A DNA stretch of 64,000 nucleotides from a virus, in the IMG/VR virus record IMGVR_UViG_3300042384_001374, positions 12,100 to 76,099 of that record, one strand, 5' to 3'. The notes beneath the pieces are model-generated. The model saw only the letters and a program-made list of their open reading frames with translations. It did no database searches and was not told the DNA's origin. Position 1 is the first letter of the stretch. The number at the start of each line of letters is the position of its first letter. Shown here piece by piece: positions 342-53,600 of the stretch. The position numbers and the translations under genes are program-made.

Positions 342-3239
342 TCAACGCCGCATTTTGCTGCCGCAAGTAGTCGTCAAACCGATCTTCTGCTTCACTTTTT
401 CCCAGCCCCGGTTGGCCATCTTGCTGACCTTCTTCACTTCCTCTGAACGAAAGCGTCCCTTAGTGACAGCCTTCTCCACCAACAACAGGAAGGCGTCAGC
501 GCGGTCGGGCGATTTTTTCAGCCGCTTCTTCGCTTCGTCCTTACCCTCCACCCGCACGGTGCGGCCTTCCTTGGCGTGATACTCGCGCTCCACCAGCTCG
601 GCCATCGTCTCAATTGACAATCCGCTGATCTGGTTGGAACGGATGAACTCGGCCGGTTGAATCCACAACTCTGAGTTTTTGTTGTAATAGGTGCAGTCTT
701 CGTTGCGAAAAAGCACGGTGCGGTCGGACGCCTTGCCTTGGAAATTGACCTTCTGCACCGCAGGCGACCACTCCACGTCCACGATGTGCCCAAACGGAGT
801 GCCCGCTCCGGTGTTGTCGTGGATGGCGTCGCACGGTTTTACTCCCATTTGGATGCCCATGTCCCGCCACTTGCGAATAATCTGGTAGCTGAGCGGGGTG
901 GTCTTGTCGGTGATGTCGTCCTCGATGGTGGTTTCAAGGCAAACGTGCAGATGATCGCGGCCGTTTACCTTCCCAAGCTTGCCGAAAGCCGCTTGCGAAC
1001 GGTCGCCGCCGCGTGAAAACGACGGGTCCAGCGATTCGAGAATTTCCGGATGCGTGTCCCACGCTGGTTCGATTTGGCTCAGGGCGCACGAAATGAGAAA
1101 CTCAGTTTCGGAGTAGATCGAATTGGCGGAACCGTCCGGGCACCAGAACGCCTTGACGAACCGGTAGTAACCCCGCGACTTCTTGCCGCCTCGTTGACCC
1201 GCAATGCGGTCGCAATACGCCTGATCCGGCTGCCAATGAAACTTGTGTCCATCCGGGTGGGTAATGCGCGGGCTTTCTTCAGCATTAAAGCGCACGCATT
1301 TGCCGTATTTGGTGCGCCAACGCATCTGGGATTCGTTCACCGACTTCCAGCCCTCGTCAGGTTCGCAGAGGTCGCCGAATGGATCGGTGAGCTTGTCCGG
1401 GTTGGCCATGCCTGCAAATGTCAAAGTTTCGTTGGAAATCAAGTTTTCGGAAGCAGTCTTAAGGATACCCGGATGCAGCTCGTTGAACTCGTCCGCCGCC
1501 ACAACCACCACCGGGTTCTTGATTCCGAGCAGCTCTTTGGATGCTTCCTCCCCGTCTGCTTTGCCCGCCGCCTTAAGCACGATGCCCGAGTTGCGCCACA
1601 GTTTGCCGTTGGCATCCACTCCCTTAATGTAGCCGTCCGAGTCAATGAGCTTGCCGGGACAACCCATGATGGACGCCTGCCCCCACAATTGAGTGAGCGA
1701 CTTCCAAACCCGCATTCGAGCGTCTTGTTTGGTGGTAGACATGATGATGAACCAAGTCTCAGACGGGCGACCCCAGTAGGCCATCAACCCGTAAAGAGCC
1801 ACCGCGTCGCTCTTGCCCGAGTTGTGATGAATTACCCCTTCCGCAAAGTAGTGCCCCTGAATTGGCACGGTCACATCGTAGAACTCGCAAATCCCAAGAT
1901 TGGTGATTGACTCCACCTGTGGAAGTGAGACCATCAAATACGATGAAACATCAGAATAAAGGCTGGAGCAAGCATGTGGAACGGAATCAAAAAATTGCGG
2001 ATCTGTTCCGAGAGATGAAAAGCACCCGTCTGGTTGCTGACGAGGTTGGAATGTCGGTGAAAATGATTGGCTATATCCTGAACCGGCAGGGCATTCCGAC
2101 ACCAAGGACTGGAATGCGCTGTAACCCTTACGCAGCTTGCGACCGAAACTCAGCGCTAGTGCTAAAAATGTGCTCCGAAAGCTCCACTCTGAACGAGATG
2201 GCGGAGGCAGTTGGAACCGTAGGGCGGGAGGTGAAGAAATTCCTTCGTCGGAATGGCGTGACAAAAGAGTTTCCAAAAGCTCCGCACACCGGAGATCGTC
2301 ATCACCAATGGAAGGGCCGGACGGTGGACAAGGACGGCTACATTCTGATTCATCACAAAGGTCATCCGAATGCGCGGAAGCACAGCCACTTTGTTCTGGA
2401 ACATCGTCTGGTGATGGAAAGCGCTCTAGGCAGGCATCTATTGCCAACTGAAGTCGTTCATCACCGCGATGGAAATAAGCAGAACAACCAGATTGAAAAT
2501 CTCCAGTTGTTTGCAAGCAATGGAGAGCATCTTGAAGTGGACCTTGCTGGACGGTGCCCGAAATGGAGCGAGGAAGGGAAGGCTCGTATCCTAGAAGCGA
2601 CGCGCCAACGCTGGCTTCGCGAGCACGCTTCCAGCCGTCCGGAGTCAGAATTAAGTGGTCTCCAGTGCATTTGAACGATTTTCCATTGCTGAGCCGAAAT
2701 TCAAACATCTCGGCCTTTCCTTTGAGGTAAGGAGTTTCGGCCAGCTCCGGACCATTCAGCGTCATAACCCACGGTCGCTCACCCGCATCAGAGAGTTCTT
2801 TGATCGTCGGTTCCTCCCATGTGGTCGGATCAAAAATCCGGGTGTCTCCTGAAACGCAAGACGAGCACCCGGCATAGCCGACAAAATTCTTCTCTCCCTT
2901 ATCGGTGATGCACTCGCGCAAAATCGTCTCGGTCCATTCGTTCCAGATAATACGCCTGATCGAGCCGGGGCAGTTGAACGACAGGTCGATGGCTCGGCGT
3001 AGGTAACGCCAGCGGTCGTCCTTGGTCGGCGGTGCACCCGTGCGAGAGCCTCCACGCCACTCAGCTTGGAAGCACATGAACAGACAGGCCGTCAGCTCGG
3101 ACGTTCCATTCGGAAAACCAGCCCCGTCCAACCAAACCGAGCCATCGGCATCAACTGTGTAAGGCGCAGGTTCAAAGAGCCCTTGCGGGCTGGGCGCTAT
3201 CGCTGTGGTCATGCCTTCCACTACCAGACATTCAACCAA
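342..3239 (-). CDS. terL: terminase large subunit, interrupted by an intein in the Walker A motif
   Basis: Spliced Walker A GCSS|SGKS, Walker B VVVAADE, coupling motif ANP, RNase H-like nuclease region (LDPS..GGDRS, DNTGAG, SPDRADA). Confidence 0.9.
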   Translation of the reverse strand: MVECLVVEGMTTAIAPSPQGLFEPAPYTVDADGSVWLDGAGFPNGTSELTACLFMCFQAEWRGGSRTGAPPTKDDRWRYLRRAIDLSFNCPGSIRRIIWNEWTETILRECITDKGEKNFVGYAGCSSCVSGDTRIFDPTTWEEPTIKELSDAGERPWVMTLNGPELAETPYLKGKAEMFEFRLSNGKSFKCTGDHLILTPDGWKRAREASVGASLLGYEPSLPRSISGTVQQGPLQDALHCLQTTGDFQSGCSAYFHRGDERLQLAIDACLERFPSPDDVPEQSGCASAHSDDLCDESECSRPCPPSGPSIGDDDLRCAELLETLLSRHSDEGISSPPALRFQLPPPSRSEWSFRSTFLALALSFGRKLRKGYSAFQSLVSECPAGSGYSQSFSPTFQPRQQPDGCFSSLGTDPQFFDSVPHACSSLYSDVSSYLMVSLPQVESITNLGICEFYDVTVPIQGHYFAEGVIHHNSGKSDAVALYGLMAYWGRPSETWFIIMSTTKQDARMRVWKSLTQLWGQASIMGCPGKLIDSDGYIKGVDANGKLWRNSGIVLKAAGKADGEEASKELLGIKNPVVVVAADEFNELHPGILKTASENLISNETLTFAGMANPDKLTDPFGDLCEPDEGWKSVNESQMRWRTKYGKCVRFNAEESPRITHPDGHKFHWQPDQAYCDRIAGQRGGKKSRGYYRFVKAFWCPDGSANSIYSETEFLISCALSQIEPAWDTHPEILESLDPSFSRGGDRSQAAFGKLGKVNGRDHLHVCLETTIEDDITDKTTPLSYQIIRKWRDMGIQMGVKPCDAIHDNTGAGTPFGHIVDVEWSPAVQKVNFQGKASDRTVLFRNEDCTYYNKNSELWIQPAEFIRSNQISGLSIETMAELVEREYHAKEGRTVRVEGKDEAKKRLKKSPDRADAFLLLVEKAVTKGRFRSEEVKKVSKMANRGWEKVKQKIGLTTTCGSKMRR
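1821..2858 (-). mobile_element. intein (346 aa) in TerL
   Basis: Starts CVSGDTRI (block A), has block B KCTGDH, ends FYDVTV..GHYFAEGVIHHN followed by Ser+1. Confidence 0.93.
1943..2674 (+). CDS. HNH homing endonuclease with two N-terminal HTH-like repeats, antisense within the intein
   Basis: GYILI..HP...VLEHRLVME..LGRHL...EVVHHRDGNKQNNQIENL is an HNH_3-type motif; ATG at 1943. Confidence 0.9.
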   Translation: MKHQNKGWSKHVERNQKIADLFREMKSTRLVADEVGMSVKMIGYILNRQGIPTPRTGMRCNPYAACDRNSALVLKMCSESSTLNEMAEAVGTVGREVKKFLRRNGVTKEFPKAPHTGDRHHQWKGRTVDKDGYILIHHKGHPNARKHSHFVLEHRLVMESALGRHLLPTEVVHHRDGNKQNNQIENLQLFASNGEHLEVDLAGRCPKWSEEGKARILEATRQRWLREHASSRPESELSGLQCI

Positions 3240-3253
3240 CCGAAAAGACTTTT

Positions 3254-3508
3254 TTAGCCACGACTAAAATCGCACTTCGGCAACATAGACGCAAGTTTGT
3301 CAAATTCAGCTCGATTCCTTTCGATCCAGACGCGCTCCACTTCTTCTTGAAAGAATCGAATTACCTCACGCATCTGATTCCTCTTTATCTCACTCGTTGC
3401 AGCGACGCTAGGAGCCGCTTGAACTTCAACTGCGGCACATAGTGAGGGAGCGATAAACGGAGCGCTCACAGCGCCCGTCAGCAGGGTAAAGAAGGAACGT
3501 CTTTTCAT
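3254..3508 (-). CDS. hypothetical protein with twin-arginine-like N-terminus
   Basis: MKRRSFFTLL followed by a hydrophobic stretch. Confidence 0.55.
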   Translation of the reverse strand: MKRRSFFTLLTGAVSAPFIAPSLCAAVEVQAAPSVAATSEIKRNQMREVIRFFQEEVERVWIERNRAEFDKLASMLPKCDFSRG

Positions 3509-11670: not shown

Positions 11671-12251
11671 AAACCATCAACACTCTCGGGGAAAACTTTG
11701 AGAAACGGCATCAATTTTTGCTGCAAATTGCCAAGTTAAACGAGGTGGCCATCTGCGGAGGCTGCGCTGCAGCCATTTCGAAAGACCGTCAGGATTACAT
11801 CCCAGCCGATCTCGATCTGGTTACCACCAAGGCCAACGCGCTGCGGTTTGTCGATGCGCTCAACCACTTCCTTTTGGACAAGCAGGTCCACTACCGAATC
11901 TATGCCAACTGCCACAACGACTTTGTGCCAACACCAGCGACAGCACACTTCCGCATCCAATGCCCGTTCTGGGTGCCGGTTTGCTTGTTTATCATCCCGC
12001 ACGACAAGTTCCGCTATTACCGCATCCAAGGCGGGCATCTACTCCAGTTGCCGCAAGACGTGAAACAAGCAGCGGACGCCCTCACCGAGCGGGACGAAAA
12101 GCCGCGCCTCGCCAACGAACTGGCCGAAAAATTTGAAAACAACACCGAACAAATGGATTTGAACGACGACTACCACGACGTGTTCTTCGATCAGGAACCT
12201 GTCGAGTCTAATCCTTTCAACGGCCCCCAATCTTACACCCAATCTTTATGA
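11667..12251 (+). CDS. putative nucleotidyltransferase-fold protein
   Basis: AICGGCAAA...PADLDLV resembles the Pol-beta superfamily GG..A...DxD motif. Confidence 0.55.
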   Translation: MKTINTLGENFEKRHQFLLQIAKLNEVAICGGCAAAISKDRQDYIPADLDLVTTKANALRFVDALNHFLLDKQVHYRIYANCHNDFVPTPATAHFRIQCPFWVPVCLFIIPHDKFRYYRIQGGHLLQLPQDVKQAADALTERDEKPRLANELAEKFENNTEQMDLNDDYHDVFFDQEPVESNPFNGPQSYTQSL

Positions 12252-38600: not shown

Positions 38601-41600
38601 CTATTTGTTTTCTTTGCGAATCACCTCGCGCATTTCGGCGCGCTTTTCCGCTCTCGGCTCTCTGGCAAACGGAATAGCTTCAAATGTCAAATAGGTGGCC
38701 GCGTCCAGCAACGAAGCCGCCCGGTTGCGTTGCGCTTCCCTGCTCATCAAATATTGCGAAGTAAGGACGCCCGCTTCCAGCGCGTCGTGAGCCATAGCGG
38801 TAGGTGCGGTCAAGTCAGCCAGTGAACCGTGCCACGAGTCTTTGTAAGAGCGAATGGTAACACCGTTCTTGTCGTAGCTTCCAAAGCCTGCTTTAAGCTG
38901 TTTGCGATTAAACGTGTTGTTTAATCCAGCGGCTCCGGCAATTGCCATCGGGTTAGTGACGGTTTTCTGCACCAACCCGGAGACCGGTGCGTAACCCGCC
39001 ATTACCCCCAGCACTGGCACTGCTGTGGTTAGTTCCAGCAAGCTTCTGGAAGCAATTTCAGCAAATGCCGACGCCTGCGCCGCGTCTGCTTTTTTGGTCT
39101 GGTCAAACAATTCCCGTTTGTTGCCAAACGTGATGGTTTTAATGACTTCGCCGAGCATAGAGCTTTTTTTGTCCACGAACATCCACTCGTTGGCGAGTTT
39201 CTGAGCTTTTTTCTGGGCCTTGTCATCATCGTCGCCGCCTGCCAAAAAAAACAAATAAGACACCATTGGCACCAGCATTTGAAGCTTAAACGGGTAAAAC
39301 AAAATGTTTTGGGTCAGTGAGGTGACCACGTTCTCCAGCGCCTCTTTCTTGGTTTCCGCGTCAGCCTTTTCATCAAACAAAATGGGCACCAAAACCGAAG
39401 TGTTGGACGCCATGCTCGACGTGTGATTGCTGAAGCGCACCATCGAACGCCACAGCGCGTTGCGGCCGGGCGAAGATGTCCGGTTCTGAAACATCCACGA
39501 TTTCTTGCTTTGGTCCGACTGAGCCATCACATCGTTCACCTTGCGCCGGGCGTTGCTCTTTGCCATCGCGGTGGGCTCGACGTTCGATTTGACCACGTCG
39601 GCCGGTTCCATCTTCATCTGGTCAGCCAGCTCGACAATGAACATCGCCGTGGACAAGTAGGACTCACCCTTGCCAATAGTCCAATGAAGCGCCTTCTCGC
39701 CGAGCTTTTCGTATTCCCGAAGCCCTTTGCCAGCAAGGTTCTTGGCCGTGCTTTTCCCAAACCTGACTTGGCTGTGCATGATGTCACGCGCCACATCCGC
39801 GCCGTCCGCCGAGCGGTAATACACCGAACGGTCGGTCTTGCGGACAAACTCCCGAGCCTGTTCATTGAATTTTCGGTCGGTGATCAGCTTTTGCAGGATG
39901 CTGAAGTATTGCGCTGCTTGCTTGCCCTTTCCAACCGCAATCTTGCCAGCGGCATACCCTACTGAAGGGCCTGTCGTCTGGTTCCAAACTTGTTGAAGGC
40001 TCGCCAAAGCCCGGACTATGTACAACGATCCGAGAAAGCGCATTGCTTCCGCGCCACCCGTGTTGCTCACTCCGTTGGCAGCGTCGTTTTGGAGGATCGT
40101 CTCGTTTTCTTCCGCGATGGCGGAAAGAGCTTGGCGAAACTTTTTAATCTCGTCCTCAGCTTCCTGCTTGGCTTTGCGCTGGGCCGGATCGTTCCAGTCG
40201 ATGTCGTCAGGAATCATCTCGTTCGCTTTATTGAGAAAGTCACCGTCTTTGATGGTGTTCACGCCGTGCTCATCCTGCACCACGCGGCCGAGTGAACGCC
40301 GCAGCACCTCGTAAGTCGGAGTGACGTTCAGCTTATAGATAGCGTCGTCCAAAAGCGAAAGCGGCGCGGTAAGTCCGTTCAATGAAATCGGACGGAACGG
40401 ATTGCGGGAGTTGAAGTAGCCACCCTTGCCGTAGCCGCCGAAGAACGACGAGTCCTTCAACGACACCATGTCGATGGGGTCGGCGATGAAGCGGTCGGAA
40501 CTGACCTGCTGCTCTGCCGGGTCGGGGCGTGCCGCGTAACCAACACGCAGCGGCACGGACGAATAGGTAATCTTGAATGCCTCCTTAGCGTCGTCCCGCC
40601 ACGACTCGCCCGTCACCATGCGCTCGCCCTTCAGCAACTCGCCCGGCTGCTTGTCCACCGCCGCATCCTGCGACAACATCGCCATGGTAAGCTGCATCGC
40701 GCTACTGATGTCGGCAAACGACCTGTTGAGCTGCTGGGCATATCCTTCGACCGCAGCCTCGTTACCCAGAGTGACTTTCGATTCAAGCAGTGCAATGAAT
40801 TTGTCCGTCAGCTCTTTCGCTATTTCCGGCGAGCTAATGATGGTATTCGAAATGCCGGATTCCAGCATCCATCCGCGAACTTCCCGAGCCAGTTCCAAAT
40901 CACGGATCATGTCGAGATTATCCGCGTTCCAGTAGCGGTTCAGTTTTGGAATTACTTTGCCGGTCGGAATAGGATTTTTGTTCGCATCCAAAACAGCCTT
41001 GCCATCCGGGCCTTTTACCAGCTCGCCAAAATACAATCCTTGCGCCCGATTCAGGTTTTCCAACTCGTTCAGTCCACGCCCGATGTCGGTAACCAAGCGG
41101 TTGGTCGCCGTCTCGCGGTGCATTCCGAATGCTGTGTCGATGCCTCGGAACACCGAAATGAGGTAGCCGATGGTTTGGTCTTTGGCGTTATTACCAATCG
41201 GCTTGGCCGCCTTGACGATCTTTTCCTCCTCCGCTTTTTTGGAAGTCTCATAGCCTTGGCGTCCGCTGGTGCCGTCGATGCCATATTCGATGAAGTCTTG
41301 CAAATGGATAGCGGCTTGGCGGGCAGCGAAGTTGCGGCGGAACTTGCTACGAATGCGAGCGTCTTGGTGATGCAAGAATTTCAAGGCTCCCAATTCCAGA
41401 GCATGCTTCTTGCCGTCAAACGATACAAAATCAGTAATCAGGCACTTCTGGATTTCTATTGCTTCAATTTCGGCGAACGCCAGCGAAAACACCGGCTCCA
41501 CCCGGAAAGCAAGCATCCGGCTGACATCCATGTCCTTGACTGAAGATCCGCCCACTTTGGCGAACTCGCCCGAATCAATCGACTTCAACAAGGTTTTGAT

Positions 41601-44600
41601 CTTAGCCTTGGTGCTGTCGCTAAGCCGGGTGTCGCCGTGCGCGATGACCAACCGTTCGATCATGTAACCAAATTGGTCGAGCTGCTTCTTAGACACGTCG
41701 CCAGTCAGGTCGGCGGTGCGTTTTGCACCAGTAACCGAACTCATCGCGTCGTCCAGCCATGTCTGCATGCCTTTCCGCCAGTCGTCCGAAAATGCCTTAG
41801 CGGCTTCACCTTTTTTCAGGTTTTGTTTAGCCGGACTAAAATCAGCGCCGTCAAAATCCTTGCCAACTTCTTTTTCAGTTCCGGCAAGGAAGTAAGAATA
41901 AGACCCTTGCGCTGGCACACCTTGATTGACTGGCAGTGCATCAAGGATAATGCGCTCCATCTCACGGTTGACGTTGCGCTTGGTAATCTTTGGAAAGTGC
42001 TGCATCAACAACTCGCGGGCGTTGAGCGGCATCATGATCACCTTCTCGCCCTCTTGGTTGATGAGAACACCCAGCTTTTCCTTCCGGAGCTGGTGACTCT
42101 TTGGCAGGTTGATTTGTTTGACGCGGTTTTGGGCGGTGCGGGTCAGGGTGAGTGCCTCTTCCGGGTCGGACAGGTAGGCTGCGGCGTCGGCCGTCATGCC
42201 CTTGTATTGCGCTTCCTGCGCGTCGGAGTGGGCGTCCTGCATCACCTCTTTGACAATTTGCTCCTCAAGCTGCACCAAGTCCACCGCTTGGTTGATGGCT
42301 TTGAGTGGGTCAAAGTTCATGAATTGGTCGCGAGAGCCCCGAACAAACTTGTAGGCGTCCTCAATGCGGTTTTCAGACTGCTCAGTAAGAGCTGTAATGA
42401 CGGCTTTCTGTCGTATCCAGTAGTCTCTGCGGGACATAGTGCCAGACGGCTCGCTTGAAGCGCTTGCAGGTGCCTGAACGTCGTCAGAAACAGGCGGCAA
42501 GGGGTTTGTCAGTGTCAGCTGTGCTTTGTATGTCACTTTTTCGTCGATTGCCTTGGTCAATAAACCTCCAGACTGATCGTTTTTTTGACCCTGCGACGCC
42601 CGCCCCGAATAATAACCCATCCCCACTGGCACTTTGCCTTTGTTGCTGTCGATGACGGACAGTTCGTTGCGAGTCTGCTCCAGTTCGCGCTCCACCCGTC
42701 CGAGGTAAATGGCAGCTTCCTTACGGCCCTGTTCCTGCTCCACGCTGCGGGCCTTACTGGAAAGCAGCGCCCGTGCTTGGTTGGTAGTCAAAGCGATGTC
42801 TTGAAGGGCTCTTTGAAGATCCACTCCAATCAAAACCTGTTGTTTTTGAGTGGATAAATTCTCAAAATTGCGAGCAGCACGAAAGATTTCATCAATTGAT
42901 TGTTCAGGATCAGAAACAAAACCTTCGTTACTATCCAGCAACTTGTTAATTTCCTCGTCGATAAACGCGGGCAAGTCAATGGTTTCGTTCTTCATCAACT
43001 CCTCTGACACCATCCGCATGAACGCGTTGGTCTGCATCTTTGGTTTAGCCCCGGCCGTCACCCCTTGGGTAATCTCACGGACCATGTTGTCCATAAACCC
43101 TTGGGCAAACTTGCGGCCGTTGAGCATTCCAGACAGCGAGTTCATTACGTCGGTTTGTTCCTGACGCGTGAAATCGTCGGTTTCCTTGAATGTTTTTAAA
43201 CGGAACCCGCTCAGATTCGCTTTTTTCGGGTCCACCCCGGTCCAGCGCATCACTTGACGGGCGTGCATCTCGGCGTGCGAGTTGAAGATGGAAACGTGCA
43301 GGTTGAACAAACGGGCAGCGTCGCTGATGCGGCTGTTGATGCCTTGCGTGTCGCCCTGTGGCAGCTCGTTGTTCTCGTCCGGAGTGAGCAGGGTGTTGCG
43401 TTCGCGGACCAGCGCGCCGATGGCGTTGGCTTGTTTGTAAAGCCCGTCCACCGCCGCTTTGAGCTGCGGGTTGTTTTCCATGCCCTCGGTGAGCATCAAA
43501 TGCACGACATGCCCAAGATTCGCCGCATTACCGGAATCATCTTTCATCATTTCCGCAAAACGGGTGACGTGCGCCACCACCATGTCCCGAGTCTCCGCTT
43601 TCAGAGATTCGGACCAGTCTTTAGCCGTGGCTAAAAGGTTTGCACCTTCCGGGCTGTTGTCCAACAACTCCTGAAACGCCTGACCATTATCCGCTTCGTA
43701 AGCGCCGATCTCCGCCAGCAGCGCCTCGCGCAGCTCGTTCAGGCGAGTTTGGTTCTTTTCCAGCGTGTCGAGCGACAGCTTGGCTTCCAGCTCCGCTGCA
43801 TCCAGCACGCCAGCAGGCAGCGCCATCCGAATCGACTCCATCATCGCGTCGTCCAACGGCAAATTTACATCCACAAGCCCAAACCCGGACGCATCGGCAT
43901 CCTTTGAAAACTTAGAAATGGCCTTTTTCACAACCGCAGCACCCACCAGCGTCCGCACCGCAGGCGCACGCAGCAACAATGAACTGTTGGTCGAGTCGAT
44001 GTTTCTTTTTTGAAACGCGATGTTCTGTGACGTGCGACCGCTCACCTTTGGGATAGTCAGGTTGCGCATCTCACCGACATACATTTTGGTTGCCGCTTTC
44101 AGTCCTTTTTCAACGTTGCCTTGCAATGCTGGTCCCGCTACCGCAATGCGGAGCTTGTCAGTGCTGATGCCTTGGCCGGTCGGGTCAAGCGGGGCGCTCA
44201 GGATGTCGCTGGTCGTGCGTTCGTTGGAAGGAGCCATCGGGAATACCCCGCCAGCCGCTTTGCCCTGCTCTATGATGCGGGCAAGCCCGTTGAACAGGAA
44301 CGCGTCGGACGGATTGAGCCCGTTGCCTTGAAGCTCCTTGGCCAAGCGCTTGTTGATGCGCGGCGCGTCAGGACCAAAGCGGTTGGCTTTGCGGTCGTCG
44401 TCAAATTTTGTAGACTGGCGTCGGCCTTCCATTATTTCCTGAAGTTCTTCAAATGTCTTCGCTTCTTTGAGTGCTTCAATCTCCGGAGCGTCCGGGGTGC
44501 TATCATACCAGTTATAATTGTCGGATTCCTCCTCGTCCAACGTGACCGATTCTTCGGTGGCGCGGTCCACATGATCTTGATCGTGCTCTTGAGCGCCTGT

Positions 44601-47600
44601 GTTGGCCCGCAGGATGTTGCGGATGCCTTCCTGAAGCGCCAGCTCTACCGGCTCGGCCAGCAAAGTGTCGGCAAAGCCGTCCACTCCGATGTAAACCTTG
44701 TCGAACAACTCTTTGGCTTTCGGGTTAGTCAGCACTTCGGCGACAATCAGAATGTCAGACGCCGTCGATTGGTCGTCGCCAAACATGTTGATGAGAGCCC
44801 CGCCGTCACCATCCAAGCGCAGCGTGCGTCCAAGCTCAGCCACGTCAGACAAGTGTCCAGACGGGTCCGCCGCAATCGACTCGGGGAAGACGGCCGGGTC
44901 AAGCGACAGCCGGATGATCCGCGCCATCTCCGCAACCTGCCCGCGCACCGCTTCGTTCTTCGACGCGATCTTGAGCGACTGGGCGATGCCGCCGAAGCTC
45001 TCGGTGGCGTTTTTGTCCGGATTCTTCTGGCTACTTGGCGAATACACCACGTTTGGTCCGCCATCCGTTCCGGGGAAAATTTTGAAGCCAACATCATCCA
45101 ACCCGTAGCGAGTCACTTGGCTGTCCTTCGGCGACACGACCAACGTCTCGCCCGGAAACGTCTGGATGAGCTGTGACAAAATCGGGTTGCCGATGCCGTC
45201 GATGCCGTGGACCAGCATCGAGGCGTCATACACCATCACCTCGTCGTTGCTGGTCATGCTGCCCTTCAACATCCGGGCAATGGCATCAGACTCTTCTGGC
45301 GAAGCCATTGAATTGGTCTGCAAAGAACTTTTTGCCACTTTGCGATATTTTTTAACATCGCGTTTGACGGGTTTTTTCGGTGTTCCCTGCTTGACCTGCT
45401 CCAAGTAATGTTTTGAGTCAAAACGCTCACCCGCGCCATTTTCCAATGACCAGAATTTACTTCCCGATCCTTCAACGTAAGAAAGAATGGTATTGGATGA
45501 CTTTCCTTGCCATCCCTCACCACGATACGCCCATTGATAACCATTTTTGGCATTCGGAATTTTAGGCAGTCGGGAAAATAACAATTCCTCATCAACCGTT
45601 TCATTCACAATGAACTCTTCATCCGTTTCCACGTTTCCGCCAGAATACTTGGGAGGGTTTACACCCGGATTGTTAATGGTTCCGTTCGTATCCACGATTT
45701 CCTCAACCCGGCCAGCAGCCAGTTTAACCACAGCAAGCGCTCGGCCGATCTTGTGGCCCGCCTTAGCTTCTTCAACGATGGTCGCCTCAAACGACTGCTT
45801 AAGTTCCAACAAGCTCACTAGCACCGTCTCAACCGATGGGGTTTGCCCAGTCAAGTTGGATAGCTCTTTTTCCATTTCATCGTAGAACGCTTCCGGATTG
45901 CTCATGCTTTTGGCCAGCGGGAATGTGCCCCGGATGCCCTTGCGGACGAGCTGGCGTTGTTCGTCGCGGCTTTTGTGGTCGTTCTCCATTGCCCACAGGT
46001 CAAACAGGAAGGCACGTCCAGCGTCGATGTCGAGCGTGTCGCCGTTGCTCTGCGAACCAATCATCAAAGCGGCTCCGGTAAGCGCCATGCGGCGTTGGTT
46101 TTCGGGTCCAGCAGCTTGGTCGATGGCCACTTCGGCAGCCGTCTTCACGCGGTCACCGTCCAACGACTCCATCATGGATTGAACCGTTTCCGAACGATTA
46201 GTGCGCTTGTCGTCATCAAACACATTCGGGTCAGTAATGTTGCCCGTTTTGTTGTAGATCATCGGCATAACGCCTTCGCCCCGATTGGAACGGTTGATCA
46301 TCTCCAGAAGCTCAAAGGCGAAGTTGGAACCAAACACGTAGTCGCGCTGTTTTTCGTGGAACTTCATCAGCCACGAGAGGTTCGACAGGATGCGAGCGTC
46401 AATCGGAGCATCGCGCAGGCGCTCAAGCTCCGCATTGTCTCCCGTGTAGGAAGCTTCCCGCTGCCAGCGTGATCCCTCGAACGCCACGTTGTCACGCCAT
46501 TGCTGGTCGCGAAATTCTATCAGTGCCTTGTTGGTGAGGCGGGCCGCGTCGTTCGCACCATCCAAACGGGCACGCACGTTTACGATCATCCCGTCGAACA
46601 ACTCGGCTGCCACCACTCCGTGGTCTTTTGTAAGAACCATCTGCAAGTCGTCCAGCAAGCGGATCAGGCCGTTGGTTTCCGTCTCCCCGCCGATCTGACG
46701 CAGGAATGCCTTGTTGTTGAACTGACTTTCAATGAGCCCCTTCACCCGGCCCGCCAGTGTCTGTTTGCCGCCAAGCTCGGTGATAAGCGGCGCGAAGCCA
46801 TCGGCAATATCCTCCTTCGGCTGGCTGACCAATGCGACAGTTTCCTTGGCCCATGCTTCCATTTGGGAGACGTGCGCGATAAGCGCTTTGCGGGCTGGCT
46901 GGTTCTTGTCACCCTTGCCCTTGGCGAGCTTCTGCGCTTCGTTGGACGCTTTGAACACAAGGTCGTTGAACATCTTTACGTCCGCCGTGCGGAACGCGTT
47001 GGCGGCGCGATAGCGGTCAGCCCCGATCTCCGAATTAGTGTCCTTGGGCAAGGCAAAGCCCCCGGTGTGCCAGTAGGTGTCCGCTTCCTTGGTGTCACCA
47101 ATCTTGCCGTCCACCCAGTCCACGAAGAATTGGAGCCACTGCATGCGCCCGGCATAGGCGGCGTTGCTGTTGCCAGCAATTTCAATAACGGCACGCTCTT
47201 GGTTGTCCATCACCTGATCCGGAGTCAACGGGTCCATCCCCTTGCCTTCTTCATACCAATGCAGCTTTGGACGGAATCCGAGATAGCGGCCGGTGTCTTC
47301 AAAGCGCACGCCAAACGTATCGTTCTTGTTGCTAGACGGCGCGATGCTCGGTGCGGACAAGTTGTCCAATGCGGACGGGCTTGAGATGCTAGTCGGGAAG
47401 CTCAGGCCCTCACCGCGCCCTGTGCGAGCTTCGCGGTTCAGGTCGCGCATGCCCAAGCCAAATTCTTTCGGCCGCGTCCACACGTCCCCAAACGCAAGAC
47501 GCTGAAGGTTCTGGATCGAGCCGTTGTAAGTGTCCAGCGCTTCCTTAAACTGCATAAATTTTGACATCCGTTGAGACGACAAAGGAACTTCCGGGACATC

Positions 47601-50600
47601 CCATTGAACCGAAAAAGATTTGGCTTCAGCCTCCGAAGCGCTGCGACGTGCATCCGCAAGTTCAGTTTCGAGAATTTGTAATTGGTCGGCAACTTTAACC
47701 ATAGGCAACATCACATCATCAGATGTTGAAATAAGCGGCTCTGCCGTTCGTCCCATGTATGATGAATGCTGCTCCAAGTTGACAGAGCGTTCCAAAACCC
47801 GAGCTTTCAAACGCTTCATGATGGTCGTCACGTCATTCGGGTTGATGCCTTCACGGTCAAATGGATTCTCCAATCGAAACCTTTTAGCCGTGGCTAAAAT
47901 CGAACGACGCCCAATGTTCGTGCGCGGGTCCATCGCATTGATCAAAGTTTGATCGCGTCCAGCTTGCTTCAAGCGAAGCATCGCCATCTTTCCTTCAATC
48001 GCCCGGACACGTTGTTTGTGCATGACGGAAAGCTGGCGGTAATCTTCAGCCTGCTGTTCTTTCGGCACCGTGTTGTCGATGTGCTGACGGATGCGGGACA
48101 GCGTCTTGCCCGCATCAGGACCACCCAGCTCCAATGCCGGTGTGATGTCAAAGTCCATTGCCGCCATCCGTGCCTCCATTACCTGACGGTTGAGAAACAC
48201 CAAAGTCTTGGCCCGCTCAAAACCAGTTTGATCAGCTGACAAATCCGATTTTTCGTCGTTGATGTCGGCCAACAGCGCGTCAATGCGCTGCATCGCGGCG
48301 GACGTTCCCGAGTCGTCCAAAGCAAAATCGGCGACGTACTTCTCAAGGTAGTCTTTGATGATCGGTTTCAGGCTCATCGCCAGCGTCTCGCCGTCGATGT
48401 CGAACACGCTCTCGAACTTGGTGTTGGGGAACTGGTCCACGATTTGGCGCAACTCCGTCACCGCTTGGAAGTGCTCGGCGGTGATTTTGTTGCCCCACTT
48501 CAAGTGGGCCTCGGTGCCTTCGCGCTGCATCTCCAGCGTGCGCTCCAAAGCATCTTCCCGAGCGAAGTTCACGTCCCCTTGCACGCCAGCCTGACGGTAT
48601 GCTTGATCCAAGCGGAACAACATCTGTTGCTGGCTTTGCGGGAGCTGACCGATGGTCCAGCGCATCGCGAGGATGTTCTTAATCCGGTCGGAGTAGCGTT
48701 TCACCAACGCGGCCACCGTGTTAACCAGCTTGCCGATCTTGCCAGTCTCGTCCGCGTCCATGTTGATGGACCCTTGCAGCCACTGGCTTTCGTTGCGCAC
48801 CGCACGTTCAGTGTAAGAGCCGCTATGACGAAGCTGGTGCAGTTTGCGGATCAGTTCCGCCGCTACCGCGTAGTCTGCGCCCTTGACGAATTTCAGACCC
48901 TTAGCCTTGTCTTTTTCCTTCGGGTCCACTGAACGGCCGGGGTAGCGTTCCGCAGCCGTCTCAACCAGCAGTTTGTAAAATGGATGTTCCGGATTCTTGG
49001 CGATGTCCTTGTAGAGCTGTTCCAGTTCGGCGTCCTCAAAAACGTCCTTGGTGAGCAGGTGGAGCGTTTCTTCGTCCACCCAGTAAGCCAAGACCCGCGC
49101 CACATCGGCGGCAAGGATGTTTTTGGCCAAATCAGACGACATGTTCACCCCGGCGTATTGTTGGCGAAGTTGCTCCTTCAACTTACTGAAGTCCACCTCG
49201 ATGCGGTTGGTCTGCAAATTGGCCCTTAAGAAAGAAGCTCCTTCTTTAGACAAATCCAGCTCTGCCACTTTGTTTTTAAAGTTGGGCGATACCACATCCA
49301 TCACGCCGCTCAATGCCGAACGAACTTGTGAGACAGTAACGCTTCCATTGGCGATACCGGGAAGCAGCGGCTTGATCAGTTTCGCCGCTTCCGTAAGCCG
49401 GGTCTTGTTCCACTGGATGTTGCGCACCCCTTGGTTAAGCGTGCGCAGCGAAAGTCCTTCCGGCGACAGGCTGACTTTGCGGAACGTCCACTTGCCGTTC
49501 TTCGCAGAGTCGAGCACGAGAATGGAATCGGGCTCACCTTGGATCAGGACAGTCTGCCCCACTTTCACCGAGAGCGTCTGGCCCTTTGGGGCCTTGTAGG
49601 TGTAAACGATCTTCTCCCCCATGCCGTCCTGCACCGCGTTCTCCTTGGCGCGTTCCTGCTCGCTCTGCTCCTGCATGTTGACCCGCTCCCACTTGCCGCC
49701 AGCCTCGTCGGTCTGGCTCTGCTCGATGGTGTCGGACGCGACGATCAGAGCGCCCTCCGGGTCTACTGCGTCAATCGCGGAGCCCTCAAATTTTTCATCA
49801 GACACTTTGAGCGCATCCAGTTTGGCAATGGATGAATTGTTCTTCCTTTTCCTTCTTGGAAGACGCCGTTTGCCTTGACTTCTGTTTTGCGCTAACTGGC
49901 CATTCATTCCAAACGACCTGTATCCAAGCACCCGAGTTTTTGGAAACGCAGCGACATTTACCGAATCTTCGGAATTACCACTAAGCAAAATGACGTGGGT
50001 TGATGTTTCGCCAAGAACAAAGCCCGTATGTCCGCCCCAACCATTTTTCCCGCCAGTGGCCGGATTGTTGTTCCAAAGGACCGCAACGTCACCGTAAGAT
50101 GGAGATGTGGTTTTTTCACCCATATTCAAAAACGCTCTGGCTGAGAAGTTTTTAACGGACGACCCACCCTGTCTCAGTGACCATGATGTGAATGCGGTGC
50201 ACCATGGGAAAGTGGAAGGGCTCTGAGAAACGCCCAAGCTGACCAGCATCGACTTAATTCGAGATGAACTTTTCTCTTTTTCGTTAAGCAATGCGGCCCC
50301 GGCATTCACCGAAGGATCACTTCCCTGACGCAACCACCACTTGCTGATTTTTCCGGGCAAGACAATCGCGTCATCCGGCCCGAATTCATTGCTTGATGCG
50401 ATAAAGTTCTCGGTGGATTCAAGACTTGGCCCCACATTAGTCGTCTTTGTCTCCACCTCAACCAATGGCGCGGGAATATCAATGCTGACGATGGACGGAA
50501 AAGGAAGCGTCGACTCGTCAAGAATCGCTACGTTGTCTTTCGCCACCAACGGCAATTCATTGGAACTTGAATCAAACTCGGCATCTTCAAATTCATCCTT

Positions 50601-53600
50601 CGATTCAAAGACTGGAGCTTCATAAGAAACTTCCAAACTCGCCACCATTGGAGACAGCTCGGCCACCGAAGCGATTTCCTGATTGGTCGAGTTCGGAGCG
50701 ATAGAGATTCCGGCAATGGCAATGGCCATCATCTTGGCCGAAGTCCAAATCTTATCTCCAAAACGAGAAAGCTCTTTTGAAAATCCGCGAAGCCAAACAA
50801 GGAACTTGTCTTTGCTGCCAAACTTCAAAGCCTCCACCACGGCTGTATCAACCAACGTCGGAGCAGCTTTCCTGATTTCCTCCAAAGGAGCCTCATCAGG
50901 AAGTGTTTCAAGGCTCTCTGATTCTTTTTTAGTTTCAGCGATTTCCTTCAAATCCTTTTCGGAAACAGGCTCTTCAGCTTTTACTTCCGCTTTCGGTTCA
51001 ACCGGAGCAGTTGTTGCAGCCGGAACCTGAGGTAATGATTCTCTAAACCGTTGTAAAGCAGTAGCTAGTTTAGTGGCGCTCAAATTGTCCCTCATCGTTT
51101 TCACACGAATGTCGATGTCGGAGGCAATCAACTCCGAGTCGTCGTCATGCTTTTCCTGAAGCTCGCGCAGCAAACGCGGCTCCACCGTCACCTTGCCATC
51201 ACGCCCGACCCACAACCCGGTTTCTTTGATGCCGTCCATTTCGGCTTGGTGGCTGGATACGGTAAATCCTCCCGACGAAATGGTTTTGACCTTTGGCTTG
51301 GGCGCGACCGTCGCCTTATTGGTCGAATCAATCCGAACGGCATTGGCGGTGGCTTCTTCGTCTTTGGTAAGTGTGTCGGTAGACGATACTTCTGGTTTAG
51401 CCGTGGCTAAAGCCGGGTCAGATCCCGCAGGTTTTGCTCCACCACTTCCGGTGGGAGCAGATTCCACCCCTTTGCCTGCATCCGTTCCCGCATTGCTCGG
51501 GCTTTTTGCCACAGGCGTTTCCGCTGTACTGGTGTTGTTTTCATTAGATGGTGATGATCGAAGAAGAGAGGCTATCATTTCCGAGGCATCAACGCGACTC
51601 TTCTCGTCGCTCATTGATTCAGTGATACGTCCAAGTCTGGAAACTTGACTCTTCATTCGAGATAGCTCCGCTCCTTTTTGAGAATCATCCAAGCTCGCCA
51701 TTTTCTTGTAAGCCGTCGCAACCAACTTTTTAAGTTCAGGAGACGCTTCTTTCCATTCTTGAGCCCATGCTTTTTCCGCTGACTCTTGGCCTCCTCTAGC
51801 CAAAATGTCTTGGTGATGAAACACCTCTTCATCAATAACTATGTCAAGAACGGCCTCCCACGTATCTTTGAACTTTTTCTTGATCCGTGAAAGAAATCCG
51901 GGAGCCACACGAAGTTCTGATCCATCCATTGAAACCTGAATCTGTGGACCTTCAAATTGATTACCTCGAACCACTTTTAATCCTTTAGGAACTCTAGGTT
52001 GAATCTCTTTCGAGTCCTCTTCAAAATCAGCATCGTTTTTCCCGGCAATGTCTGACAAAGATTGCCCTCCTTCCGGTATTACGCTGGATTCATCCGTAGA
52101 AGGGGTCAAAGACGCGTCGGAAGCCTCCAGCTGGGACTCAGTGGCGGAAACAGAAGTGGATGCCGCAGGAGTGCTGGCTGGAGCCGTTGGCGTGGTGAGG
52201 ATTGAAGTAAAGCGATTGACACCGGGAATGTCCATTTCGCGGGCACTGGCAATTAACACCTGCGCCTTGTCTTGAATTGAAGTTTTGTCAGAAGCAAGAT
52301 ACTCAGCTAATGACTGAATTTCGAGCGTTTTTGGATCAGCGTTACCAAAAGTCTCAAACTTTTCGACGTTGGTTTTGATTTTCTTCCAAATCCCTTCTTG
52401 AGTTTGCAATGCATCTGACTTGCCGAAAATTTGGCGTGGATTGAGCGCGGCGTTTTGCGCCCCGCCAGCCGTGCCACCAATTGCTCCGAGAACCCCGGCC
52501 TTGATGTATCCCTGCCAGTTGTTTTGGATCTGTTCCCATTCAGCTTCGGTCCACGACTTCGAATCGTGAGACATCGACTGAATAGCTCCACTGATCACTT
52601 CGTCCATCATCTCCTCCACACCTTCCGCTACCACGTCATCGACAATGCCAAAGCCGTGAAGCCCAAGTCGTTTGCTGGTGGCGTCCATCGAAGCCGCCAA
52701 GCCGGTGCCAAACGCTTTACGCAAAGCGGCAGCGTCTGCCCCGGCAAACTTACCCAAAGCTTCCTGCGTCTCACGCATCATTGTCCCGCTACTCACCTTG
52801 GAGCGAATCGACTGAACCAAGCTTCCTCCAGTGTTTTGACCGCCATCCAGCAACCGCCCGGCACCCTTGGCGAACCGGTTCATGATGGAAGTGGCAATAA
52901 ACGCTCCAAGTCCGTCAGACACGCCATGGGTGACCGCCTCTTTGTGGGCCTCTTCCCGAGAGTTGGTGCGCTCGAATGCGTCGTTAAACGTGCGGCCGTA
53001 ACTCATGCCGCTGGCCTGCAATGAACCCAGAATCACTTCGGAGTCGGCAGCAATGGTTTTGACCAAGCCTCCAGCTTTCTGGCCAAGCGTTTTAGTTGTG
53101 ACTAAACCAGCCTCAACAGCGGCAACACGCTCAGCAGCCTTGATAGTAGCGCGAGACAATAATTGACCTTCAGCGCCAACCACATAACGAGAAGCGCCGG
53201 AAGCTCCAACCTTAACCAAACCCTTCCCCGCCAACGAACCACCCACGCCCATCGCAATAAATGAACCAATCTGCCCAGCCAGCTCGGTAAGGTCACGGCG
53301 GTTAATATCCACCCCAAACACGTCAAACTGCTTAGTGTTGTTGTAGGCTTTGCCTGAATCTGCAGCTAAGCCGCCCCATGCCTCCATCGGCGATGTGTAG
53401 TTGCCGCCGCTGCCGAGCCATAACGCCCCCGTGCCGGTCGCCATCAACGCGTCACGGAACGTTTCCGCCACTTCCTGACCCACTCCGTAGTTGTCTTTGT
53501 TGAAACGTTCTTTGTTCGCCTTAATGAACTCGTAGGCAGATGCTCCGGGCTTTGACATCGCCTCGTTGAACTCATCGTTCAGCGGCCGAGAGACAATCGC

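Follow-up and report, generated by a model that had tools for sequence, protein, structure and literature searches.

The locus described here poses the question of how two proteins can be written across one another on opposite strands of the same phage DNA, and for the sake of which of them that DNA is kept. It lies in IMG/VR virus record IMGVR_UViG_3300042384_001374, a complete phage genome of 76,099 bp with terminal repeats, of which positions 12,100 to 76,099 were analysed (64,000 nucleotides, hereafter the window). Near the start of the window the gene for the large subunit of the terminase (TerL) is interrupted by an intein, and a gene for an HNH endonuclease runs antisense through the middle of this intein. 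We consider it probable (roughly 0.8) that the two form a selfish cassette, that is, two genes sharing one DNA, in which a splicing intein is combined with an antisense homing HNH endonuclease that has its own promoter. The features concerned are listed below in window coordinates.

342–3239, minus strand: TerL precursor open reading frame, 965 amino acids (aa) counted from the TTG at 3239 in the list of open reading frames
2859–3212, minus strand: N-extein, ending with the first half of the Walker A motif (..AGCSS), from alignment with intein-less alleles
1821–2858, minus strand: class-1 intein of 346 aa (C1 ... HN, then Ser+1), from Pfam PF14890, the insertion alignment and invariant residues
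2574–2858, minus strand: N-terminal splicing domain of the intein, residues 1–95, with block B (T65-x-x-H68) at 2655–2666, from the AlphaFold2 model, Foldseek and the codon-position pattern
1941–2573, minus strand: in-frame intein linker, residues 96–306, the reverse reading of the HNH gene, stop-free and predicted to be disordered
1821–1940, minus strand: C-terminal splicing domain of the intein, residues 307–346, with blocks F and G and the ending HHN, from the AlphaFold2 model and a hidden Markov model (HMM) of the C-terminal blocks
342–1820, minus strand: C-extein, opening with SGKS, the second half of the Walker A motif, from alignment with intein-less alleles
1943–2674, plus strand: HNH endonuclease gene, 243 aa and stop codon, from Pfam HNH_3, PHROG HNH families, the AlphaFold2 model and selection; helix-turn-helix (HTH) bundles at aa 6–48 and 65–103, ββα-Me HNH domain at aa 126–200 and a helix at aa 210–231
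1907–1934, plus strand: candidate sigma-70-like promoter, with TTGACT at 1907–1912, a 16-nt spacer, TG at 1926–1927 and GACCAT at 1929–1934

The intein has the residues characteristic of class 1, namely the nucleophile C1, a block B reading T65-G-D-H68, and a terminal H345-N346 that is followed by the serine of SGKS. It occupies residues 128–473 of the 965-aa open reading frame and matches the Pfam family Intein_splicing (PF14890) at an E value of 5e-10; C1, H68 and N346 are invariant across 69 relatives, and the C-block HMM matches the C-terminal splicing domain in all relatives. Alignment with intein-less homologues places the insertion exactly between AGCSS and SGKSD of the Walker A motif, a junction that is ungapped and free of an intein in P0123, P0126, P0127, P0128 and P0145. 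An initial annotation of this locus, made from the sequence alone, had described normal splicing blocks around a Ser/Pro/Cys-rich and unrecognisable centre, and both halves of that description hold: the linker (residues 96–306) contains 17% Ser, 9.5% Pro and 5.2% Cys, as against 6.9%, 4.5% and 2.6% in the exteins, and has no Pfam match. The two halves of the intein lie on one uninterrupted open reading frame, here and in all 113 embedded loci described below, and the gene is therefore not of the fractured type.

TerL homologues start near MT..APSP, at the position of the ATG at 3212, which on this alignment is probably the true start codon of TerL, the listed TTG being probably unused. The exteins in the window have no direct match in Pfam or PHROG, and a profile search of solved structures gave a marginal terminase match only (E value 0.051). 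Seven of 30 family members, however, match phrog_2 (terminase large subunit), with a best E value of 3e-18 and a value of 0.0011 for P0123, and the name TerL is given because of these matches and the position of the gene. The whole TerL had no match in a tblastn search of GenBank phages, and a scan of viral contigs that used the C-extein as a single query sequence returned near-identical fragments only. We assume that this gene encodes the only TerL of the phage and is hence essential.

The plus-strand gene matches Pfam HNH_3 (PF13392) with 37.6 bits against a cut-off of 24.8, as well as 12 PHROG HNH families (best E value 6e-25), and is single-copy in the genome. Its AlphaFold2 model (mean predicted local distance difference test score, pLDDT, of 88) contains two three-helix bundles, a beta-beta-alpha core and a C-terminal helix, which together with the open reading frame and the HNH_3 match agrees with the intact 243-aa HTH-HTH-HNH protein proposed at first for positions 1943–2674. 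The best match among solved structures is I-HmuI (PDB 1u3e), at a probability of 0.99 and a template modelling score of 0.25–0.34, a global score that is limited by the multi-domain model. Seventeen HNH columns are invariant in 39 sequences that are 30–66% identical to that of the window, and these include H154, N182, N186, N193 and H196; their roles, as catalytic His and structural Asn/His, we presume from the known HNH fold. One subgroup of embedded HNH proteins (P0008, P0011, P0013, P0017) is longer, at 287 aa, with about 45 extra N-terminal residues that resemble a third helix-turn-helix module.

The predicted fold of the intein mirrors this division of the DNA. In an AlphaFold2 model based on 69 relatives, the pLDDT is 95–99 for residues 1–95 and 97–98 for residues 307–346, and drops to 41–57, with no secondary structure, for residues 100–306. 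Foldseek matches the intein model to the Mtu RecA and Ssp DnaB mini-inteins (E value 2e-7, root-mean-square deviation about 2 Å). The linker is thus predicted to be disordered, and the two HINT halves, like the HNH protein, are predicted to fold with high confidence.

Both frames are open over 732 bp, in keeping with the more than 700 bp first reported. Within this overlap, the first positions of HNH and intein codons face each other, and the second position of either pairs with the third position of the other. The HNH gene starts one to two codons before the C-terminal splicing domain, and its stop codon (2672–2674) lies over intein codons 62–63, so that its 3' end crosses block B as the initial annotation had indicated. 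A chance origin of the open intein frame was considered and is rejected. Permutation among synonymous HNH codons left the intein frame with 5.1 stops on average (P(0) = 0.0007), recoding the HNH with terminase codon usage gave zero stops in 0.4% of cases, and shuffling the order of the HNH codons left 10.5 on average, without a single stop-free result in 20,000 shuffles; the other two antisense frames of the overlap contain 8 and 12 stops.

A two-frame comparison of the dN/dS (nonsynonymous to synonymous rate) type, across 12 members of the terminase family of the window and over the core of the overlap, shows on which protein selection acts. The ratio of the proportions of nonsynonymous and synonymous differences (pN/pS) is 0.43 in the HNH frame, where pS is saturated at about 0.75 and pN ranges from 0.2 to 0.47, versus 1.53 in the intein frame. 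Nucleotide differences at HNH codon positions 1, 2 and 3 are 0.386, 0.293 and 0.619. Read in the TerL frame, third-position divergence is 0.62–0.74 in the exteins and intein residues 1–85, falls to 0.12–0.45 in residues 86–305 (0.12–0.32 in most 20-codon windows, for which the extein value is 0.65–0.70), where positions 1 and 2 vary more, and returns to 0.51–0.55 in residues 306–345 and 0.68 in the C-extein. The codon-position signature thus switches at about intein residue 86 and back at about residue 306, and the pattern of the intein extends over the final 23 or so codons of the HNH gene, which form an unconstrained tail. From these ratios and patterns it follows that the HNH is under purifying selection at the protein level and that the linker is merely kept open. 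The locus had been called a double-coded mobile element, a description borne out by this selection on the antisense nuclease and by the occurrence of the unit in unrelated host genes reported below.

The arrangement is not confined to this phage. A word-indexed search returned 272 HNH homologues, and a full HMMER scan returned 127 cluster representatives at E ≤ 1e-30 and 7,414 at E ≤ 1e-10, which gives a clade of at least 127 clusters at 50% identity (E ≤ 1e-30). The loci examined comprise 160 fetched with an HNH profile and nine found with a single sequence. In all 80 of the best viral HNH loci, and in about 27 of the 29 best loci from bacterial and archaeal assemblies, the HNH lies antisense in a long open reading frame and in the identical codon phase. 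Matches to HMMs built here from the N- and C-terminal intein blocks were found as well in 113 loci, which yield 85 distinct inteins of 269–400 aa; all of these run from C1 to HN followed by S, T or C, and nearly all are situated inside Walker A GxxxxGK[ST] motifs.

The antisense reading has left its mark on the embedded HNH genes. They contain no stop in 21,612 codons read in the intein phase, whereas free-standing relatives, read in that phase, have 4.63 per 100 codons, and each of 89 distinct embedded genes is stop-free where synonymous permutation predicts about 5.2 stops. A Phe that precedes Ile, Met, Thr, Asn or Lys forces a stop on the opposite strand; such dipeptides follow none of 334 Phe residues in embedded HNH proteins versus 30 of 126 in free-standing ones. 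Distant HNH_3 relatives are free-standing, without intein flanks. The use of a single phase, which is not unusually permissive in the free-standing relatives, points to one origin for the embedded forms. No longer proteins with the HNH in frame were found at E ≤ 1e-10, which is only weak evidence for the absence of in-frame forms, and a search of the flanks of 55 free-standing relatives revealed no split-intein form. The proposal that the arrangement is an intermediate on the way to split inteins is accordingly not upheld: besides the lack of a split form among these 55, the layout is old and stable, with HNH identities down to about 35% and the phase fixed in every copy.

Cultured phages share the layout. 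Pseudoalteromonas phage PHS3 (KX912252.1, L175) has a continuous 708-aa open reading frame (..GGAG, CVHPDT ... VHHN, SGKS..) together with an antisense gene annotated as "HNH endonuclease", and its "terminase large subunit" annotation covers the last 391 aa only. Pectobacterium phage Ymer, six sister Pectobacterium phages and Dickeya phage Setonix have matches to the same HNH; in this group the layout was read in detail for Ymer alone (OP748252.2, L174), which encodes a product of 754 aa with the same build, annotated as "hypothetical protein", and an antisense HNH of 232 aa that has no annotation. Automatic gene callers split or truncate the terminase where a nested HNH is present. The public gene call of the window phage itself (P0122, 342–1934) is a 530-aa product that starts inside the intein. 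A decayed copy occurs on a contig of Polaromonas sp. CG9_12 (L049:337-953), where an 84-aa HNH remnant lies beside an intein N-terminal domain broken across two frames.

The distribution of the intein among terminases is patchy. Of ninety TerL homologues most are intein-less, with lengths of 575–615 aa, and the closest (P0123) is 89% identical overall to the TerL of the window, with a contiguous AGCSSSGKSD. On a tree of the exteins of 76 alleles, the intein-bearing alleles require at least six gains or losses, and each of them has an intein-less sister at short distance (L002/P0170, L092/P0165, L004/P0145, P0125/P0126 and the window/P0123). The cassette also crosses between host genes. In 25 pairs of loci the HNH proteins are 45–64% and the splicing domains 46–57% identical while the exteins cannot be aligned, and the same cassette is found in the P-loops of AAA or AAA_2 ATPases (L014, L022), of SNF2/Helicase_C proteins (L018, L019, L024) and of Sno-like AAA_34 helicases (L033, L040), which reach lengths of up to 2,790 aa. 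Judged from these comparisons, the cassette moves as a unit between unrelated host genes, and its distribution is what one would expect if a homing element targeted conserved P-loop coding sequence. Targeting of P-loop coding sequence was proposed by Gosselin et al. as a route of extein switching. One further TerL homologue (P0174, 967 aa; 60% identity in the C-extein and 48% overall) contains a canonical intein with an in-frame LAGLIDADG endonuclease (Hom_end, Hom_end_hint), with an insertion point three residues farther along in the same P-loop (between GK and S); together with the intein in the window, this means that two unrelated inteins target one motif in one terminase family.

The genomic setting bears on how the HNH could be expressed. 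The genome is laid out as a minus-strand late block, a plus-strand early/middle block at about 6.9–37 kb and then a giant gene, and in the first 18 kb or so all genes are minus-strand late genes except for the HNH, the sole plus-strand gene there. The candidate promoter is located in the antisense of the intein C-terminal domain, and the HNH ATG follows 8 nt past the candidate -10 box, which suggests that the mRNA may be leaderless or nearly so; other HNH sub-families have a short leader with GGAGG. Although the -35 box overlaps terminase codons, namely those for the V-S-I motif of the intein, its ATTGA does not vary among 11 family members, and TerL third positions at the box are more conserved than in the exteins (0.65–0.76 vs 0.47). 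Among 81 distinct loci, the promoter score is at least 9 in 63% of upstream regions versus 4–5% in two controls (Wilcoxon p ~1e-10), and the end of the -10 box is usually 90–119 nt from the intein/C-extein junction. From the isolated strand of the gene and this position-conserved, sigma-70-like candidate, we infer that expression of the nuclease is uncoupled from the late terminase operon, as was suspected at the outset. The giant gene (38601–54443, minus strand) encodes 5,280 aa and is probably a virion RNA polymerase, which suggests that the phage is N4-like.

We posit that these elements act together as follows. The terminase would be translated straight through the class-1 intein in its Walker A P-loop, the two HINT halves would fold together, and the stretch of about 210 residues between them would be a passive, disordered tether; self-excision of the intein would restore the GCSS-SGKS P-loop, and a working terminase would be kept. 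The HTH-HTH-HNH protein would be made independently of the late operon, from the promoter in the antisense of the intein C-terminal domain. Its most likely activity is to cut or nick P-loop alleles without an intein in co-infecting relatives, and repair from the intein-bearing copy would spread intein and HNH together, that is, by homing; the carrier would be immune because the insertion destroys the target site. The only demand of the intein frame on the overlap would be the absence of stop codons, a demand that appears to be satisfied by codon choice and by the lack of Phe-[I/M/T/N/K] in the HNH. A more extended account, which we find about as easy to doubt as to accept, is that one ancient backward entry of an HNH gene into a mini-intein gave rise to a self-contained, promoter-carrying cassette, with its -35 box in the V-S-I codons, that hops among terminases, AAA ATPases and SNF2/Sno-like helicases by way of a universal P-loop target. 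It may be the most abundant class of non-canonical phage intein, hidden since gene callers cannot report fully nested antisense genes.

Several observations weigh against the selfish cassette. The HNH and the intein are physically linked, and co-inheritance alone is no proof that the HNH targets the insertion site; the patchiness on the tree could equally reflect losses by recombination. A generic promoter scan called no site in 1400–3400, and the -10 box in the window (GACCAT) is weak, with three of six matches. The scan missed the candidate because of this poor -10 box, and the promoter is proposed because of its conservation across loci. The match of the HNH to I-HmuI is weak by E value (0.14) and covers 96 columns only, at 24% identity. 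Finally, "embedded" is partly defined by an open frame, so that the fair comparison for stop avoidance is the count of 80 in 80 loci together with the permutation, and not the zero count alone.

Of the other explanations, the one we take most seriously, while regarding it as unlikely, is that the HNH has been taken over for a job of the phage itself, either as a packaging nuclease like HK97 gp74 or as a weapon against competing phages. HNH genes adjacent to terminases are described as packaging co-factors (PMC3592412), and purifying selection on the HNH would be expected under such a role as well. A nuclease of the gp74 type would, however, stand alone irrespective of an intein, and what we find is the reverse: the related phages with intein-less TerL, at 89% identity, have no HNH at the same place, the same HNH clade occurs in inteins of AAA, SNF2 and Sno-like helicases that are unrelated to packaging, and the embedded HNH always travels with the intein. 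A role against competitors would share the cleavage mechanism of homing and is therefore no real rival to the cassette. It is more improbable again that the HNH frame is an inert relic of a past invasion and that what survives is a working mini-intein whose linker is long. Gosselin et al. discuss such a fate for open reading frames of this kind, but an unexpressed antisense frame would quickly gather stops, and the saturated pS beside a low pN in the HNH frame, the 17 invariant columns, the confidently predicted HNH fold and the position-conserved candidate promoter all argue against a relic.

The convergent candidate promoter inside terL could also be read to mean that the plus-strand transcript is mainly an antisense RNA that tunes terminase expression, with the protein secondary. 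We give this little credence, as a role for RNA cannot explain purifying selection at the protein level or the conservation of the catalytic residues. That the locus is an assembly or inversion artefact, or a dead terL, has the odd layout as its sole point in favour and is hardly credible: the genome in the record is complete, terminal repeats included, and the same layout and phase recur in more than 100 independent contigs, some of them from phages that are cultured and viable (Pseudoalteromonas phage PHS3 and the Pectobacterium phage Ymer group). The homing cassette remains the explanation that we prefer.

The initial annotation had cautioned that out-of-frame nucleases in phage inteins may already have been reported, and this is the case, for LAGLIDADG, VSR-like and EndoVII types. 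Antisense LAGLIDADG genes in inteins of the Synechocystis DnaX and a Chloroflexus SpoVR-like protein are attributed to Gorbalenya 1998 and Gogarten 2002 in a 2025 preprint from the Gogarten laboratory (bioRxiv 10.1101/2025.01.02.630785), which also describes actinophage inteins, terminase inteins among them, with antisense LAGLIDADG and VSR-like and frame-3 EndoVII-like nucleases, and lists HNH as an in-frame type only. Its antisense-nuclease inteins resemble ours in having the nuclease on the opposite strand between the splicing blocks, an open intein frame with an unstructured in-frame middle, a preference for the terminase P-loop, and a proposed origin from an intein invaded by a free-standing nuclease gene. 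They differ in that the nuclease here is HTH-HTH-HNH (HNH_3) rather than LAGLIDADG or VSR-like, and that the present clade is large, occurs in environmental phages of many lineages rather than in actinophages, and has a conserved internal candidate promoter.

Similar parallels exist elsewhere. The cyanobacterial dnaX intein with an out-of-frame (+2) LAGLIDADG (bioRxiv 10.64898/2026.09.14.751524, from the same laboratory) likewise has a P-loop ATPase host, a disordered linker, a confident fold in the other frame, a sporadic distribution, and an omega that is below 1 for the nuclease frame but exceeds 1 for that of the intein, comparable to the pN/pS contrast here; unlike here, its nuclease is encoded on the same strand, within a cellular gene, and comes from a different family. 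Fractured genes, in which a free-standing homing endonuclease gene lies between the halves of a split intein (Dassa et al. 2009, PMC2677866), share the separate nuclease gene in the endonuclease slot of the intein and the same proposed origin, whereas the intein here is one continuous polypeptide and no split form occurs in the loci examined. The hidden out-of-frame HNH insertions of the ShiLan type in phage methylase genes (PMC11855218) also place an HNH in the other frame of an insertion that is stop-free in the host frame and missed by gene callers, but without splicing domains and on the same strand. I-HmuI, an HNH of a phage group I intron, likewise combines an HNH domain with helix-turn-helix DNA-binding modules; it differs in domain order, is distant in sequence and is intron-encoded on the sense strand. 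In full-text literature searches we came across no antisense HNH reported for an intein, and inteins go unmentioned in the paper on the Ymer phage genus. The non-canonical intein with an antisense nuclease is therefore known as a type; what appears to be new is that the nuclease is of the HNH type, is large and widespread as a group, and seems to carry its own promoter.

Inteins can gain mobility by capturing a free-standing nuclease in either orientation, and this example shows that the backward form can be stable and successful rather than a rare accident, which bears on the view of intein origins as "splicing first, nuclease later". The overlap also offers a clean natural example of coding on both strands, where the sole constraint on one frame is to avoid stops, and this leaves forbidden dipeptides and constrained codon choice in the other protein. 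Terminase genes of this kind are routinely mis-annotated, being cut up or called "hypothetical", and this affects phage classification and terminase phylogenies. Cultured phages with the layout, namely the Pectobacterium phage Ymer group and Pseudoalteromonas phage PHS3, make splicing, promoter use and homing directly testable.

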